DNA of 37,430 bases from a virus (taxonomy: Duplodnaviria > Heunggongvirae > Uroviricota > Caudoviricetes), in the IMG/VR virus record IMGVR_UViG_2585427768_000010. One strand, written 5' to 3'. Positions 1 to 8,822 of the stretch are shown here, piece after piece. The notes beneath the pieces are model-generated. The model saw only the letters and a program-made list of their open reading frames with translations, was not told where the DNA came from and ran no database searches. The position numbers and the translations under genes are program-made. Within the stretch, counting starts at the first letter, position 1; the number at the start of each line of letters is the position of its first letter.

Positions 1-1002
1 TTACCCTCTATTGTCAAAAGGGTTCAATTCAACAGCAGCCTCTAAATGACCTGGAGCAAAATGCGCATAACGCATAGTCATTTTTATATCGCTATGCCCC
101 AGTATTTTTTGCAACACAAGAATATTTCCGCCCCGCATCATAAAATGACTGGCAAACGTGTGACGTAGCACATGAGTTAATTGCCCATCAGGAAGCTCGA
201 TCTTCGCTCTCTTAATTGCAGCGTCAAAAGCCTCATAACATGGTGAAAATAGCGCTCCTCGTTTTTTAGGAAGCATAGCCTGCAATTGAGGTGAAATCGG
301 TACAGTGCGGTTCTTCTTTCCTTTAGTTTTAACAAATGTGATTCGACCGGGCAGTACTTGAGATTGCTTTAATCCTTCTGCTTCACTCCACCGAGCACCC
401 GTCGCAAGCCCAATACGGACAACAACCCCCAAATCTTTATTCCGTGACTCATCACACGCAATCAGAAGGCGTTCAATCTCATCTACATACAGAAACGCCA
501 GTTCCTTTTCTTCCTCACGAAACTTGCGAATACCAGTCAGGGGGTTTTCACCAGACCACTCCCCAAGGCGCTTCAGTTCGGCAAAAACAGCATGTAGATA
601 TGACTGCTCGCGATTAACGGTTGCTTCACTAAGTTTTTTCTTCCCCTTGGGATTCCATTCTCCTGATAGCCTTCTTTCCCGATAAGTAGCAAACATATTT
701 TTGTCAAACTGAGAAGCAAATGGATCTCCCAGCCTGGAACAAATCGCCTCAAGTTTGACTTTGCGCTCTGCACCAGAGGACAAGGTTTTACCGTACATCT
801 CAAACCAACGAGCAATCAACTCAGAAAGACGAGGACCAGAACCATCTTGAAACTCGTCTCCAACTCTACTATTCATTAAACGGCGCTCATAAGAGAGCGC
901 CTCACTTTTTGTCGCAAACTGTTTACGAATGCGTTTTCCCGATGCCCCGTAGGGATAACATTCGCAAAGCCATTTACCTGATGGAATCTTACGAACCGAC
1001 AT
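1..1002 (-). CDS. int: Tyrosine integrase, P2 Int-like (333 aa)
   Basis: Translation shares P2 Int blocks GKRIRKQF, TGARWSEA, VTFVKTKGKKNRTVPIS, HVLRHTFASHFMMRGG, LQKILGH, RYAHFAP; stop codon sits at window positions 1-3. Confidence 0.9.
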   Translation of the reverse strand: MSVRKIPSGKWLCECYPYGASGKRIRKQFATKSEALSYERRLMNSRVGDEFQDGSGPRLSELIARWFEMYGKTLSSGAERKVKLEAICSRLGDPFASQFDKNMFATYRERRLSGEWNPKGKKKLSEATVNREQSYLHAVFAELKRLGEWSGENPLTGIRKFREEEKELAFLYVDEIERLLIACDESRNKDLGVVVRIGLATGARWSEAEGLKQSQVLPGRITFVKTKGKKNRTVPISPQLQAMLPKKRGALFSPCYEAFDAAIKRAKIELPDGQLTHVLRHTFASHFMMRGGNILVLQKILGHSDIKMTMRYAHFAPGHLEAAVELNPFDNRG

Positions 1003-1007
1003 TTTAG

Positions 1008-1355
1008 TTACTTATCACATAAATCAAATGCAGCCTTAGTGACATCCCCCAGACTCTTTTTTAACCCTGGGGCGGCATCATTATCTAGCCAAAATGGATT
1101 ATTGTTATCTAACGGTAACGCACCAAATGTTTTACCTTTTATTCGAGCCAAACCTGTAAGTGCATATAACTTATTATCGTCAAAATTCATCACATAAGGA
1201 TTACCATCAAGACACTGTAATTGAACCTCATCAGTATTAAATGGCCATACCCCATTGAAACTCTCACGTTCAATAGTTTTAAAAGGCATTGCGACGGCGG
1301 AAAAAGAAAACATAGATAAAAAAGTAACTAATAGTTGAACCTTTTTTACTTTCAT
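1008..1355 (-). CDS. Secreted protein resembling the YebY/DUF2511 periplasmic family (115 aa, signal peptide)
   Basis: N-terminal signal peptide MKVKKVQLLVTFLSMFSFSAVA; remembered YebY-like pattern W.FN..EV.L.C..GN.YV.N, DNNNPF, final LC; GAGGT Shine-Dalgarno upstream; co-oriented with repressor and int. Confidence 0.55.
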   Translation of the reverse strand: MKVKKVQLLVTFLSMFSFSAVAMPFKTIERESFNGVWPFNTDEVQLQCLDGNPYVMNFDDNKLYALTGLARIKGKTFGALPLDNNNPFWLDNDAAPGLKKSLGDVTKAAFDLCDK

Positions 1356-1384
1356 ATCATTACCTCAATTTAGCTCAAGTAAGA

Positions 1385-2035
1385 TTACAAATTAAAAAAT
1401 GCCCTAGAAATGACACCACCTACCAAAACCCCTACGCAGATAAAGAATATTATTTCTTTTGGATAAAGTCGGATTAATTCTGAAGCACGAAGTCGGACTT
1501 CTGGTAAGGTCGAACTCTCTGTGTGGCTTGATGCCGATTGTTGCTCTAACCACGACAATGCAGACTGTAACTGAGAACGAGTAAGATCGTTTAAACGTCC
1601 TGTACCGAAATTGATATGGCAATACCGCAGAAGTTTTTGTCGAAGTCCACAGTCTTCACTGTTACGTAGTAATAAACTTACAAGAGCCTTACAGGCATCA
1701 TGATCTTTACATCGCTCAAGCATTGCATGCAGAAAACTCTCCGCTGTTTTATATTGATTTACTGTCATATCATCAATACCAGTTACACCAATCTCCGCAT
1801 GTACTTTTTGCCAAATAATAAACGCTTCAGTATTGCTAGCTTCTGCAATAGCAGCAACCAAGCTATTTAGCTCCTTACGCTGAGCCTTAAGCAAAGGGCG
1901 ATCGTCATCATCATTATTCGAAGGGATTGCGATATTGACGGTCTGAGAACCATCATATCGCTCTATCTGAATATTCTTTTCGTGAAAATCACGCCCAGCA
2001 ACGCGATTGTTTGAACCGTTTGAGTTGACGGCCAT
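1385..2035 (-). CDS. Hypothetical protein with C-terminal hydrophobic anchor (216 aa)
   Basis: ORF with GGGAGGTG Shine-Dalgarno; C-terminal hydrophobic segment IIFFICVGVLVGGVISRAFF; N-terminal NNRVAGRDFHE motif also found at the C-terminus of the upstream repressor. Confidence 0.55.
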   Translation of the reverse strand: MAVNSNGSNNRVAGRDFHEKNIQIERYDGSQTVNIAIPSNNDDDDRPLLKAQRKELNSLVAAIAEASNTEAFIIWQKVHAEIGVTGIDDMTVNQYKTAESFLHAMLERCKDHDACKALVSLLLRNSEDCGLRQKLLRYCHINFGTGRLNDLTRSQLQSALSWLEQQSASSHTESSTLPEVRLRASELIRLYPKEIIFFICVGVLVGGVISRAFFNL

Positions 2036-2050
2036 GTCACCTCCCTACTA

Positions 2051-2455
2051 TCACCTACCCTTAGTTTCGTTATAGTCACGACCAGCGATACGGTTATTAC
2101 CACCAGAAATATTTAACTCACGTCCTGATGGCTGAGTTTCCTTTTCACTGATCGCACCTTTTAAAGCCCCAATCACCGCATTTTTCACATCTAACGAAGC
2201 TGCTCGAAAGCGAGTAATCAACTCCTGCTCATCATCGTTATAAGTTTCAGGTGAGTGAATTCCCAACACAACATACTGAACATCAAGGCCAAAACGAGAC
2301 AGCGCTGCCAAATACGCAGCATCAGGAAAGCTATCTCCTTTCTCATATCTAAGCTGAGTTAGCTTTTTGACTCCACCAATGTCGCTCATGGCAACTTGAC
2401 TAAGTCCCAATCTTTCCCTTTCCTCACGCAACCGCTGACCAATATCATTTTTCAT
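2051..2455 (-). CDS. XRE-family helix-turn-helix immunity repressor (C/CI analogue, 134 aa)
   Basis: N-terminal HTH (QRLREERERLGLSQVAMSDIGGVKKLTQLRYEKG); positioned divergently from the early operon and upstream of int as in P2 C. Confidence 0.7.
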   Translation of the reverse strand: MKNDIGQRLREERERLGLSQVAMSDIGGVKKLTQLRYEKGDSFPDAAYLAALSRFGLDVQYVVLGIHSPETYNDDEQELITRFRAASLDVKNAVIGALKGAISEKETQPSGRELNISGGNNRIAGRDYNETKGR

Positions 2456-2464
2456 ACAAAAACC

Positions 2465-2494
2465 TTGACAGGTATCTTTTTTGATACCAAAATG
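2465..2494 (+). promoter_or_regulatory. Candidate early promoter with embedded operator palindrome
   Basis: TTGACA at 2465-2470 followed directly by perfect inverted repeat GGTATC-N6-GATACC (2471-2488) in the repressor/early-operon divergent intergenic region. Confidence 0.35.
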
Positions 2495-2530
2495 ATTTCA
2501 CGAGCTATTAGATGATCACAATATACCACT

Positions 2531-2737
2531 ATGAAACAAGTTCTTCACGATACCAGATCACGCATTCCGCGTAACACCGCCACAGGTCCAAGACTGGCAC
2601 TTCGGCTGTCCCTCGAGGAGCGAGCCGTCATTGATGAAATGGCAGCTAAAGAACAACGCTCATCCTCTAACATGGCGCGCATGATCTTCCTTCGCGGCCT
2701 AGAGCTAACCCAGAAAGAACAAAACAAATCTTCCTGA
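2531..2737 (+). CDS. Small putative ribbon-helix-helix-like regulator (68 aa), first gene of early operon
   Basis: ORF; segment RLSLEERAVIDEMAAKEQRSSSNMARMIFLRGLE resembles RHH DNA-binding proteins; function inferred only. Confidence 0.4.
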   Translation: MKQVLHDTRSRIPRNTATGPRLALRLSLEERAVIDEMAAKEQRSSSNMARMIFLRGLELTQKEQNKSS

Positions 2738-2753
2738 TCAGGAGGCTAGTGGG

Positions 2754-2957
2754 ATGTCAGGTATAACCATCAATATCAATGTGAATGCCCCCTATGTATC
2801 CCTGCAGAAATATGCAGAGATAACAGGTATCCCTCTTAATACATGCAAAAAGATGTTGGCTGACGGTCGAATTATTATCCGACCCAAACGCGCCAAAATG
2901 GAAAAGCCTGAAGTAAACCTTGTGGCGATGTTAAAAGACGCTTTGGCTAACAGCTAA
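2754..2957 (+). CDS. Cox/Apl/AlpA-like small HTH protein (67 aa), putative excision/transcription regulator
   Basis: GGAGG Shine-Dalgarno; HTH-like YAEITGIPLNTCKKMLADGRI similar in pattern to P2 Cox (FAKLIGKSTGAVRRMIDKGKLPVI). Confidence 0.45.
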   Translation: MSGITININVNAPYVSLQKYAEITGIPLNTCKKMLADGRIIIRPKRAKMEKPEVNLVAMLKDALANS

Positions 2958-2978
2958 AACAATGAACAGAGCACCATC

Positions 2979-3329
2979 ATGAAAAAAAACGCTAATAATC
3001 CATACTCCAAATTTCGTAATGGCGTAGAACGCCATGTACACCACGTCGCTACCAGTGCATCACGTAGTAACAGTCGCTATAACCTGAACGAGACGCACGC
3101 AACACCGGATGGCCACGCTGTAAAACAAATCGGCGAGCATGCCTGGCTGATTGAGAAAGCTGGAATCGTGGTCCACAAATGCCCACGCAATCCGTTTACC
3201 GGAAACCGCATTTTTGCATTGAACTGCGGCGACAATCACTTCGGGCAGGATTTCACATTATACGAAGCACTTCGCACGGTTGATCGTCTGCTTCGCGGGC
3301 AAAGTTTTATTAAACAGGCTGATTTATAA
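2979..3329 (+). CDS. Hypothetical early protein (116 aa)
   Basis: ORF in early operon, co-oriented and tightly spaced. Confidence 0.5.
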   Translation: MKKNANNPYSKFRNGVERHVHHVATSASRSNSRYNLNETHATPDGHAVKQIGEHAWLIEKAGIVVHKCPRNPFTGNRIFALNCGDNHFGQDFTLYEALRTVDRLLRGQSFIKQADL

Positions 3330-4272: not shown

Positions 4273-4514
4273 CCATTCTGGACTACATCGCTGCCAATCC
4301 GGGTTGTAGCGGTGGAGAAATCGCCGCAGCACTGAATACACCAACCACAACCATTAATGCGGAGCTACGCCGTCTCTGGCGCAGCGGTTCAGTCATAAGA
4401 AAAGAGCGCAAAACAGGCGGTCGCTTTTCTTATCAGGTAAACCCGATGCCGTTTGGGTGTAGCAACCCACTAACCCAGATGTTCAACCAGCTACTGAGGG
4501 AAATCAGAGCATGA
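4269..4514 (+). CDS. Putative winged-helix DNA-binding protein (81 aa)
   Basis: ATGA overlap with upstream gene; sequence MTILDYIAANPGCSGGEIAAALNTPTTTINAELRRLWRSGSV has HTH character. Confidence 0.45.
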   Translation: MTILDYIAANPGCSGGEIAAALNTPTTTINAELRRLWRSGSVIRKERKTGGRFSYQVNPMPFGCSNPLTQMFNQLLREIRA

Positions 4515-4655
4515 GCACCTCCAACTGCCGGAAACCACGTCGGGCTTCAGCAGCTCATCCGGCAGCAAAACAAACTCCATTAATTCCTGTTCCGGGTCTT
4601 TCCTGCACCTTGTGGCGGGAGGCCTTCGCACATCTGTAACAAGAGGATTGCCGCA

Positions 4656-5021
4656 ATGATTCTCGCCAACGACTTTCTTGAATACCTGCTCAACACAGAG
4701 CGTGATCTTGCCGTTCGCGTGCGTGAACGTTATGACATGTACCTGAAATCCCAGCTTGTACCGCAGCTCGCTGACGGAAAGATTGTTATTGATGGTCGCT
4801 ACATGATTGACAGCCACGAGGGAAATTACAGGCTTTACCGCATTGAAGGTGGCACCCCGTCCGTTATTGGCATTTACCAGCGCCCATCCTCTGCAATCGT
4901 CAATGTGATTGCCGACAGCATCCGCATCACACATCGCCATGCCGACACAGAAGACACCGTGCTGGAAATTCAGCGGCTGGCTACAGTCTGCCGCGACACC
5001 CTGAATGGCATGACGAAGTAA
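4656..5021 (+). CDS. Hypothetical early protein (121 aa) directly upstream of A
   Basis: AAGAGGA Shine-Dalgarno; occupies the position of P2 B-region genes. Confidence 0.5.
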   Translation: MILANDFLEYLLNTERDLAVRVRERYDMYLKSQLVPQLADGKIVIDGRYMIDSHEGNYRLYRIEGGTPSVIGIYQRPSSAIVNVIADSIRITHRHADTEDTVLEIQRLATVCRDTLNGMTK

Positions 5022-7926: not shown

Positions 7927-8328
7927 ATGAAAATTTGTATCGATGACGGCTCCACCAACATCAAGCTGGCATGGACTGAGAACGGCGAACGCCGCAACGC
8001 CATCAGCCCGAACAGCTTCAAGTCGGAATGGTCTGCGCCGTTCGGTGGCACGCAGCCCGCGAACTACATGCTTGATGGCGTGCGCTATGGTTTTGATCCG
8101 GTCAGCGATCGCTTTGTCCAGACAACTGACACGCAATACCAGTACAGCGATGTGAATGTCATTGCCATTCATCACGCGCTGGTCAAATCAGGCATCACGC
8201 CACAGGAGGTGGATGTGGTTGTCACCCTGCCACTGAGCGAGTATTTCGACACAAACGCACAGCCGGACATAGCCAACATCAACCGCAAAAAAAGCCCAGG
8301 ATTCCCGGGGCGGTTCAGAGGAGAGTGA
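7927..8328 (+). pseudogene. ParM/StbA-like actin-type ATPase, N-terminal fragment only (133 aa)
   Basis: Translation aligns colinearly with remembered plasmid R1 ParM residues 1 to about 125 (IDDGSTNIKL, SPNSFK, QYSDVNV, HHAL, TLPLSEY, NINRKK) then ends after 9 unrelated residues. Confidence 0.55.
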
Positions 8329-8330
8329 GA

Positions 8331-8822
8331 ATGCAAATTTCACCGGTTACTCTTCGTGTTGCGAAGGCGTTTATATCCAGACATCACCGACACAATAAAC
8401 CCCCGGTGGGGCATAAATTCAGCATTGGTCTGAGAAATGATGCCGGAGAATTGATAGGTGTGGCGACAGCCGGTAGACCTGTTGCACGACATTTGGACGA
8501 TGGATTAACGCTTGAAGTAAATCGCACATGTACCACAGGAGAACGCAACGCTAACAGCGCACTTTATGGTGCTGTCTGGCGGGCAGCAAAGGCTATGGGT
8601 TATCAACGTTGTATTACGTACACCCAGGCAGATGAATCAGGAGCATCTCTCCGCGCAGCTGGTTTTGTTCGTGTGAAAGAGCTTCCTCCAAGAAAAAGCT
8701 GGGCGGAATCAAGCGTCGCCCTGCGGAGTAAACGCGATCCGGTCGGAAACGGTGGTGTTCCTCGTGTGCTCTGGGAAATCAGGAGAATGAGTACCACTGG
8801 CATTCGCATCAAAGGAGAGTGA
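8331..8822 (+). CDS. Hypothetical protein, possibly GNAT-fold acetyltransferase-like (163 aa)
   Basis: AGGAGAG Shine-Dalgarno; weak GNAT-like pattern (GERNANSALYGAVWRAAKAMGYQRCITYT...ASLRAAGFVRV); fold assignment tentative. Confidence 0.45.
   Translation: MQISPVTLRVAKAFISRHHRHNKPPVGHKFSIGLRNDAGELIGVATAGRPVARHLDDGLTLEVNRTCTTGERNANSALYGAVWRAAKAMGYQRCITYTQADESGASLRAAGFVRVKELPPRKSWAESSVALRSKRDPVGNGGVPRVLWEIRRMSTTGIRIKGE

Follow-up and report, generated by a model that had tools for sequence, protein, structure and literature searches.

What are two extra genes doing between the immunity repressor and the integrase of a P2-like prophage, and do they act as one unit? The question arises at the left end of IMG/VR virus record IMGVR_UViG_2585427768_000010, a 37,430-nt sequence (hereafter the window) that represents a P88-like prophage (Xuanwuvirus, Peduoviridae). 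Four tightly packed, co-oriented genes run there on the minus strand in the order repressor-ORF216-ORF115-int, separated by gaps of 15, 29 and 5 nt (Table 1); ORF216 and ORF115 are open reading frames (ORFs) of 216 and 115 residues. An initial annotation of the sequence had taken both for cargo, forming a membrane-plus-periplasm pair suited to envelope-level exclusion. The comparative analysis described here separates the two: ORF216 is not cargo and is the conserved second gene of an immunity cassette, whereas ORF115 is an ordinary moron in an exchangeable slot beside int. The ORF216 protein and the repressor share a terminal motif that co-varies between lineages.

The repressor and ORF216 form a conserved cassette

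Both ORFs lie exactly where the initial annotation had placed them, and each has its own Shine-Dalgarno sequence: GGAGG (2040-2044) is located 4 nt 5' of the ATG of ORF216, and GAGG 8 nt 5' of that of ORF115. In RefSeq they are named 'membrane protein' and 'DUF2511 domain-containing protein', respectively, and both have homologues in other genera at 35-77% amino-acid identity; on these sequence grounds, both are genuine genes. They are also additional compared to close relatives, as had been claimed. The late and replication genes of the window are ~95% identical to those of phages P88, PhiR44_2 and Shae_phiSM; P88 and PhiR44_2 possess a different, shorter repressor that directly adjoins int, and the window prophage therefore has another immunity module with two extra genes. 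A scan of the block detected no minus-strand terminator-like site between the four genes, and this layout, together with the narrow spacing, fits the co-transcription with the repressor that the initial annotation had assumed. The stretch 1-2600 is found at ≥80% coverage in 506 of 5426 complete E. coli genomes (~9%), including O157:H7 and O26:H11 strains; in E. coli FORC_069 the matching sequence adjoins yecA.

A profile of ORF216 recovered 95 related loci, from 15 species-representative genomes across Enterobacterales and 80 IMG/VR contigs. In all 95, a repressor homologue sits directly upstream of the ORF216 homologue and ends 16-47 nt before it. Every locus with this repressor type has an ORF216 homologue, so ORF216 belongs to the immunity cassette. 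An exhaustive search delineated a distant ORF216 family of 134 clusters among 1.84 billion representatives; a repeat word-index search with that protein's profile gave the close homologues again and none more distant, and the alignment of distant members contains no stretch conserved enough for pattern-based locus retrieval. Distant members in pseudomonad-type P2-like prophages display the same repressor-partner arrangement, and the same pair, with a PF27202-containing partner, was reached from repressor homologues in Mu-like prophages of Pectobacterium, Gilliamella and P. aeruginosa. Between phage types the cassette is mobile, occurring in P2-like phages of Enterobacterales, Pseudomonas and Ralstonia as well as in Mu-like ones. 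Of 50,697 phage records searched by tblastn, the prophage-derived record 520873 alone contained it, with weak matches in Ralstonia besides, and therefore no characterised phage can serve as a reference.

In that record (NC_049344.1, Escherichia phage 520873, locus at 1039-3065), int is broken into two parts; ORF216 and ORF115 lack annotation, each being matched by tblastn in three pieces. These breaks look like frameshifts or sequencing errors, which conceal the genes from phage-based surveys. A Salmonella enterica contig (L139, 767-2801) carries three tandem repressor paralogues before one Flk_N gene (the domain of ORF216, see below), two of them with the full tail motif and one with a degenerate tail. 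In Candidatus Symbiopectobacterium (L013, 6001-6631) and in an Arsenophonus endosymbiont (L019), frameshifts or truncations affect both the Flk_N gene and int, and the repressor tail of L013 reads AGNNF in place of AGRDF; these changes are consistent with genes decaying together as a prophage degenerates.

The repressor tail and the ORF216 N-terminus carry a matched motif

The repressor has only weak matches to HTH_31 and HTH_3, below the Pfam cut-offs, in addition to matches to phrog_8 and other repressor families. Its AlphaFold2 (AF2) model consists of helices within residues 5-106 and a tail (residues 108-134) with a predicted local distance difference test score (pLDDT) below 50. Comparison of the repressor's C-terminal 20 residues (LNISGGNNRIAGRDYNE-TKGR) with the first 20 of ORF216 (MAVNSNGSNNRVAGRDFHE) revealed 10/17 identical positions (BLASTP E=2e-5, as a single comparison). 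The motif common to the two termini spans 17-25 residues, is rich in G, N and Q, and follows the pattern NNRxAGRD[FY]xE in the window, where a six-frame search found no copy besides these two. It is the best-conserved segment of the repressor, with a mean pairwise identity of 77%, compared to 52% for the helix-turn-helix (HTH) domain and 55% for the preceding linker. The motif-coding stretches are identical at 24/33 nucleotides; because their third codon positions agree at only 5/11, the match does not stem from a recent DNA duplication. Both motifs fall in low-confidence regions of the AF2 models.

Comparison across loci showed that the motif differs between lineages, yet is matched within each locus. 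In the pseudomonad locus L100, the repressor tail QQFNGPVGGVTSGDVVN is mirrored by the partner N-terminus QQFNGAVKQVAAGDIKN, and in L127 IFHGAVGQAIEGGISN by DFHGSVGQVAAGDIQN. The Mu-like prophage of Pectobacterium pairs QIFNGDISGQFAGNQIIN with QEFNGTAQGQFSSRDIIN, that of Gilliamella GEGQIAGGNIY with AEQIAGRDIY, and the Ralstonia phage GGSNNVQIGSV with DGNGNVQIGKV. The matched types can be written, repressor first, as NR.AGRD/NR.AGRD, QQFNG.V..V..GD/QQFNG.V..V..GD, FHG.VGQ/FHG.VGQ, FNG..GQF...IIN (in both proteins), GQIAG.NIY/QIAGRDIY and NNVQIGSV/GNVQIGKV. Two repressor homologues examined have no such tail, and neither has a Flk_N neighbour; in L128 and L129, the repressor lacks the tail motif and the N-terminus of the partner is different.

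The matching was quantified by local-alignment scores for 71 unique repressor-partner pairs, against 20000 permutations. Cognate pairs have a mean score of 57.5, compared to 39.7 for non-cognate pairs, and 0/20000 permutations were as high. When permutations were restricted to a clade, 22/20000 (enterobacterial) and 15/20000 (pseudomonad) reached the observed value. This cognate excess indicates co-evolution, since independent old paralogues that follow one shared tree would give no bias towards their own partner.

In at least 15 pseudomonad loci (L102, L110 and 13 more of L103-L125), additional small proteins of 127-144 residues with two transmembrane segments carry the same N-terminal motif, for example MEFNGNVGQVAGGDIHNY. 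There are one or two per locus, encoded at 4504-4896 in L102, and at 4505-4894 and 4916-5350 in L110. They begin with the motif of the local repressor tail and Flk_N protein, and one motif is therefore present in three or four proteins per prophage.

ORF216 is a tail-anchored Flk_N protein

Profile searches assigned ORF216 to phrog_5825 (E=6e-103). The NCBIfam Flk equivalog PRK10715 matches with E=1e-15, at 57.9 bits far under its cut-off of 353, whereas PF27202 (Flk_N) is among the precomputed Pfam matches of P0001, a protein 98% identical to ORF216, and of nearly all listed homologues. The domain region aligns at 25% identity to each half of a 348-residue Flk-length relative, which ends in the same C-terminal anchor. 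Judged from these alignments, ORF216 is a Flk_N protein and not Flk.

In the AF2 model of ORF216, the N-terminus (residues 1-45) is of low confidence and residues 46-172 form a confidently modelled helical domain; a variable linker then leads to a hydrophobic helix (192-215). The helical domain is similar to three-helix phage interaction modules, including the C-terminal domain of Red-beta (8tfu, solved with a C-terminal SSB peptide). A BFVD search with ORF216 gave no significant whole-protein match, only local three-helix similarity to RecT-type and regulatory proteins, and a sequence search against PDB chains found nothing. The helix 192-215 bears out the C-terminal hydrophobic anchor of the initial annotation. 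Its residues G202 and G206 are invariant in the family alignment, with equivalent glycines kept in distant members, and this GxxxG suggests helix-helix association within the membrane. As the only hydrophobic helix is C-terminal and very few residues follow its core, ORF216 is predicted to be tail-anchored with its bulk in the cytoplasm, as is Flk. By the precedent of Flk, a protein of the cytoplasm that has its anchor at the C-terminus (PMC13344023), ORF216 would face the cytoplasm. The invariant H79-A80-E81 was considered as a sign of a metalloprotease-like role, which was rejected, as the glutamate is not kept in distant members.

ORF115 occupies an exchangeable slot beside int

ORF115 matches Pfam PF10709 (DUF2511) at 28.4 bits against a cut-off of 21, over profile positions 2-87 of 87, and phrog_2950 with E=9e-40. 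The match to the YebY chain 7n0j is weak (E=0.003), and in it C48 and C113 align with the YebY cysteines. Profile and structure searches of the two proteins, which the initial annotation had proposed, led to DUF2511/YebY for ORF115, as it had expected from a signal-peptide protein of this type, and to Flk_N for ORF216. YebY orthologues are recognised by yobA/CopC and yebZ/CopD neighbours; the neighbours of ORF115 are the Flk_N gene and int. DUF2511 proteins are extracytoplasmic and contain a Cys-Cys disulfide (PMC8689200).

Apart from the E. coli type, only L005, L067 and L090 among the 95 related loci carry ORF115, which means 3 of the roughly 50 divergent loci with ORF216. In the other loci, the interval between the ORF216 homologue and int ranges from 80 to 1881 nt, and it is either empty or filled by one of at least 10 unrelated gene families. 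Such variable occupancy indicates a real exchangeable slot, consistent with the cargo position that had been proposed. The G+C content drops to 34-35% over ORF115, compared to 43-46% in the flanks. ORF115 alone thus combines the two marks of a moron, variable occupancy and atypical composition, whereas ORF216 is present in 95/95 loci; of the two proposed cargo genes, ORF115 stands and ORF216, with the repressor always beside it, does not. In Enterobacteriaceae, DUF2511 genes have been noted before in the interval from a recombinase to a phage CI repressor (PMC8689200), so that the prophage context of this ordinary moron is already known in the literature. The likeliest role of ORF115 would be envelope ligand or protein binding for lysogenic conversion or exclusion, and an envelope-level exclusion by ORF115 alone is possible. 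Neither ORF115 nor ORF216 has PADLOC matches at E up to 1.

Other occupants of the slot were seen in L008, L010-L012, L063, several of L068-L099, and L139. Among them are proteins of 290-440 residues with BRCT and WYL-like regions, weakly matching the PADLOC candidate PDC-S48, in addition to small acidic, zinc-ribbon, coiled-coil/transmembrane and N-terminally anchored membrane proteins. The slot in P2-like prophages may be an unrecognised defence hotspot.

Proposed mechanism and alternative explanations

Starting from the observed architecture, co-occurrence and co-variation, together with the topology-relevant features and the fold, we propose that the block holds two separate things: a cassette in which the repressor and ORF216 pair directly through their motifs, and an independent exchangeable moron, ORF115. 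We give this reading a probability of about 55%. The physical interaction between repressor and ORF216, its consequence for lysogeny and any phenotype are what we infer from the sequences. In this mechanism, the repressor tail motif and the ORF216 N-terminal motif would pair directly, probably as β-strands, and through this pairing ORF216 would tether, sequester or convert the repressor at the inner membrane. ORF216 might thereby set or switch the amount of free repressor and modulate the lysogeny switch; as an alternative output, the state of the repressor might be passed on to membrane proteins. ORF115 would be an independent periplasmic, disulfide-bonded DUF2511 moron between the cassette and int.

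Several points weigh against this reading. In the Ralstonia P2-like phage, the repressor and partner genes are nearby but convergent, and do not form one operon; in the window, the single operon repressor-ORF216-ORF115-int in lysogens is predicted from spacing and the absence of terminators alone. Neither motif adopts a confident structure in the monomer AF2 models. In the enterobacterial clade, the motif is nearly invariant and the co-variation signal is hence small (63.3 versus 61.6). The motif of the enterobacterial clade carries charges (R, D, E, K), unlike typical amyloid cores; the other variants are rich in G, N, Q, V and I. Finally, co-variation is equally expected if both motifs bind a third, co-evolving factor.

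This last point leads to an explanation that we consider unlikely but would take seriously. ORF216 might be a protein of the Rex type or the superinfection exclusion (Sie) type that is merely co-transcribed, with a third factor, such as a protease, adaptor or chaperone, reading both motifs and co-regulating the stability or activity of the two proteins, while the motifs do not touch. The low-confidence and probably flexible termini are where short linear motifs or degrons would be expected, basic residues cluster at the end of the repressor tail (NENKK, KGR), and the enterobacterial motif stays nearly invariant though the HTH domain diverges, as for a conserved host receptor; moreover, lambda cI is co-transcribed with rexA and rexB, whose products act on the switch. 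However, pseudomonad-type prophages hold at least three distinct types of matched motif, and the type in the Mu-like phages of Pectobacterium differs from that in enterobacterial P2-like phages. Several matched types in one host group speak against a single host receptor, although a phage-encoded receptor would be compatible with them. Cognate pairs are more alike than non-cognate ones even inside clades, and the missing PADLOC match of ORF216 also counts against this explanation.

A bolder version of direct pairing is that the motifs are self-templating elements like those of amyloid signalling, and that a prion-type β assembly wires the repressor to one or more inner-membrane proteins. We regard this as doubtful. 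If true, the choice of lysogeny versus lysis or abortive death would not depend on RecA cleavage but fall to a conformational switch at the membrane that acts cooperatively and may be irreversible. Amyloid signalling would then reach beyond NLR-type defence and include the core immunity switch in prophages of the common P2-like and Mu-like kinds, with E. coli O157:H7, Klebsiella and Pseudomonas among their hosts.

The joint membrane-plus-periplasm device of the initial annotation, serving superinfection exclusion or lysogenic conversion, appears improbable. ORF216 and ORF115 are indeed adjacent and probably co-transcribed with the repressor, one membrane-bound and the other secreted, and the lactococcal int-repressor interval carries Sie genes (PMC7693887). 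However, co-occurrence contradicts such a pair, as the two genes occur together only in the E. coli type and the three loci named above, with unrelated genes or none elsewhere. ORF216 has essentially no periplasmic residues and nothing that ties it to a periplasmic protein; its conserved link, kept in every locus, is to the repressor through the co-varying motif.

Even less probable is that ORF216 represents a phage copy of Flk acting on the flagellar type III export gate, and thereby on motility or flagellum-dependent phage entry. The NCBIfam Flk match, and a Flk-length relative that has the same anchor and aligns in both halves at 25% identity, would agree with such a role. The score, however, lies far under the equivalog cut-off, the N-terminal motif is missing from Flk-length relatives, and the strict linkage is to a repressor and not to flagellar genes. 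In addition, the family is abundant in Klebsiella pneumoniae, a non-flagellated species, with P0097 alone on 754 contigs, which argues against a flagellum-specific role. That the motif match is a functionless by-product of duplication or gene conversion between neighbours, as the 87-nt distance and the same reading frame of the two motif-coding stretches might suggest, is scarcely credible given their divergent third codon positions, the persistence of the match, each time in a different sequence, through several bacterial orders and two types of phage, and the motif being the most conserved segment of the repressor.

Features of the block and neighbouring genes

Table 1. Features at the left end of the window, with coordinates, strand and supporting evidence.
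Feature	Position	Strand	Evidence
int, tyrosine integrase, last gene of the block	1-1002	-	Pfam Int_N E=5e-32, Phage_integrase E=2.5e-22; annotated as phage integrase in FORC_069
ORF115, 115 residues, secreted DUF2511/YebY-like protein, cargo	1008-1355	-	PF10709, phrog_2950, YebY 7n0j
Predicted signal peptide of ORF115, residues 1-22, MKVKKVQLLVTFLSMFSFSAVA, cleavage after AVA	1290-1355	-	read from sequence
ORF216, 216 residues, tail-anchored Flk_N protein, repressor partner	1385-2035	-	phrog_5825, NCBIfam Flk, PF27202
C-terminal transmembrane anchor of ORF216, residues 195-214, GxxxG (G202, G206)	1394-1453	-	AF2 helix 192-215 and alignment
Flk_N helical domain of ORF216, residues 46-172, read as two tandem three-helix units	1520-1900	-	
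N-terminal motif of ORF216, residues 3-19, VNSNGSNNRVAGRDFHE	1979-2029	-	BLASTP against repressor tail; conserved across the family
Repressor/ORF216 junction: TGA TAG TAG (2045-2053), GGAGG (2040-2044), then ATG of ORF216 in the same frame	2040-2053	-	sequence and six-frame scan
Immunity repressor, XRE-type, 134 residues: HTH domain, two helices, low-confidence tail	2051-2455	-	weak HTH matches, phrog_8, AF2
Repressor tail motif, residues 114-130, LNISGGNNRIAGRDYNE	2066-2116	-	BLASTP match to ORF216 N-terminus; co-variation
Candidate promoter of the divergent early operon, TTGACA-17-CAAAAT	2465-2493	+	consensus scan, 10/12, pattern match alone
Arc-like (ribbon-helix-helix) gene, first of the divergent early operon, same immunity module	2531-2737	+	'Arc-like repressor' in phage 520873
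Cox-like excisionase/regulator	2754-2957	+	annotation 'Cox-like excisionase and repressor'; 45-78% identity in related loci

Three in-frame stop codons in a row close the repressor gene; the stretch reads GGAGGTGAC and then ORF216, with the frame unchanged. The triple stop may be due to chance or may guard against read-through into ORF216. On the other side of the repressor, related P2-like loci have kept the divergent Arc-like and Cox-like genes next to the cassette. The Arc-like gene is annotated in phage 520873 and shows 39-58% identity across related loci. RefSeq omits this 68-residue plus-strand gene in FORC_069 and calls instead a 45-residue hypothetical protein on the minus strand (2545-2682), a call that is probably spurious. 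Further away, a gene annotated as ParM-like plasmid segregation protein in FORC_069 and P88-like phages follows the replication endonuclease gene in the region 7927-8822 (L001, 13927 onward).

Significance

A literature search on Flk/Flk_N with prophage repressors, and on amyloid signalling with prophage repressors, found no description of the cassette; as far as the literature and the 50,697 phage records show, a repressor/Flk_N cassette with matched termini is undescribed. This repressor type has no LexA/S24-like cleavage domain. The matched motif and the membrane-anchored partner point to an undescribed control on prophage dormancy, and if ORF216 is physically coupled to the repressor, the switch might receive an SOS-independent input, such as envelope state or superinfection. 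The cassette is common, being present in ~9% of complete E. coli genomes and in many prophages of Klebsiella, Salmonella, Yersinia and Pseudomonas, and is easily tested. The Flk_N domain gains a second, genetically tractable context, and the matched-motif logic of neighbouring genes gains a new class of partner, a transcription factor. In addition, setting the conserved regulatory gene apart from the int-adjacent slot would open its diverse candidate defence or conversion genes to systematic mining.

Comparison with known systems

For ORF115, the closest counterparts are the characterised DUF2511 proteins YebY (7n0j) and MlbQ, with which it shares the domain, a signal peptide and both conserved cysteines. 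Unlike them, it is encoded neither in a copper operon of the yobA-yebZ-yebY kind nor in a lantibiotic cluster. ORF115 and its slot are best compared to the Sie2009/Ltp-type exclusion genes of lactococcal and streptococcal phages, where the int-repressor interval encodes small envelope proteins expressed in lysogens (PMC7693887), although these belong to another phage group with other hosts and have no homology to ORF115.

ORF216 and Flk (Fluke, RflH) of Salmonella and E. coli both belong to the Flk_N family, as cytoplasmic helical proteins with a C-terminal inner-membrane anchor. Compared to Flk, which has ~333 residues and a duplicated module, ORF216 is about two-thirds as long, and only ORF216 bears the G/N-rich N-terminal motif that is absent from Flk-length relatives. 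It is encoded by a prophage, directly after a repressor gene, also in hosts without flagella. The kind of action that we propose for ORF216 resembles that of PtsG on Mlc, a repressor held at the membrane, where a membrane protein controls a repressor by keeping it off the DNA. Mlc and PtsG have no homology to the cassette, and their binding occurs between domains and is regulated by phosphorylation, not through a matched terminal motif.

The layout of the cassette is reminiscent of amyloid-signalling pairs, such as Bab/Agp (BASS11) of E. coli prophage defence islands, the Bell-NLR BASS systems and fungal HET-S/NWD2. In these systems, too, adjacent genes encode one protein with a short motif at its C-terminus and another with the same motif at its N-terminus; a membrane protein is again among the partners, and a single motif can recur in several proteins. 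The VQIG of the Ralstonia pair also fits the G-phi-Q-phi-G type signature quoted for RHIM/BASS3. By contrast, the cassette has neither an NLR/STAND or TPR sensor nor a Bell/HeLo domain, its C-terminal motif belongs to a DNA-binding repressor (XRE HTH), its membrane partner is constitutively tail-anchored with the motif at the N-terminus, and the enterobacterial motif is charged. Without the sensor and effector domains, and with a charged motif, the resemblance is therefore one of logic and layout rather than membership in amyloid signalling.

In the lambda cI-rexA-rexB operon, accessory genes likewise stand directly downstream of the repressor gene, and one of the products is an inner-membrane protein. 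The two systems share no sequence similarity, the cassette has a single partner protein without a PADLOC match, and we know of no shared terminal motif for CI and Rex. Besides their part in exclusion, the Rex proteins act on the switch from lysogeny to lysis (bioRxiv 2021.04.19.439022; PMC11077077). Without homology, and by analogy of layout, lambda cI-rexA-rexB is the nearest functional precedent for switch-affecting genes downstream of a repressor.

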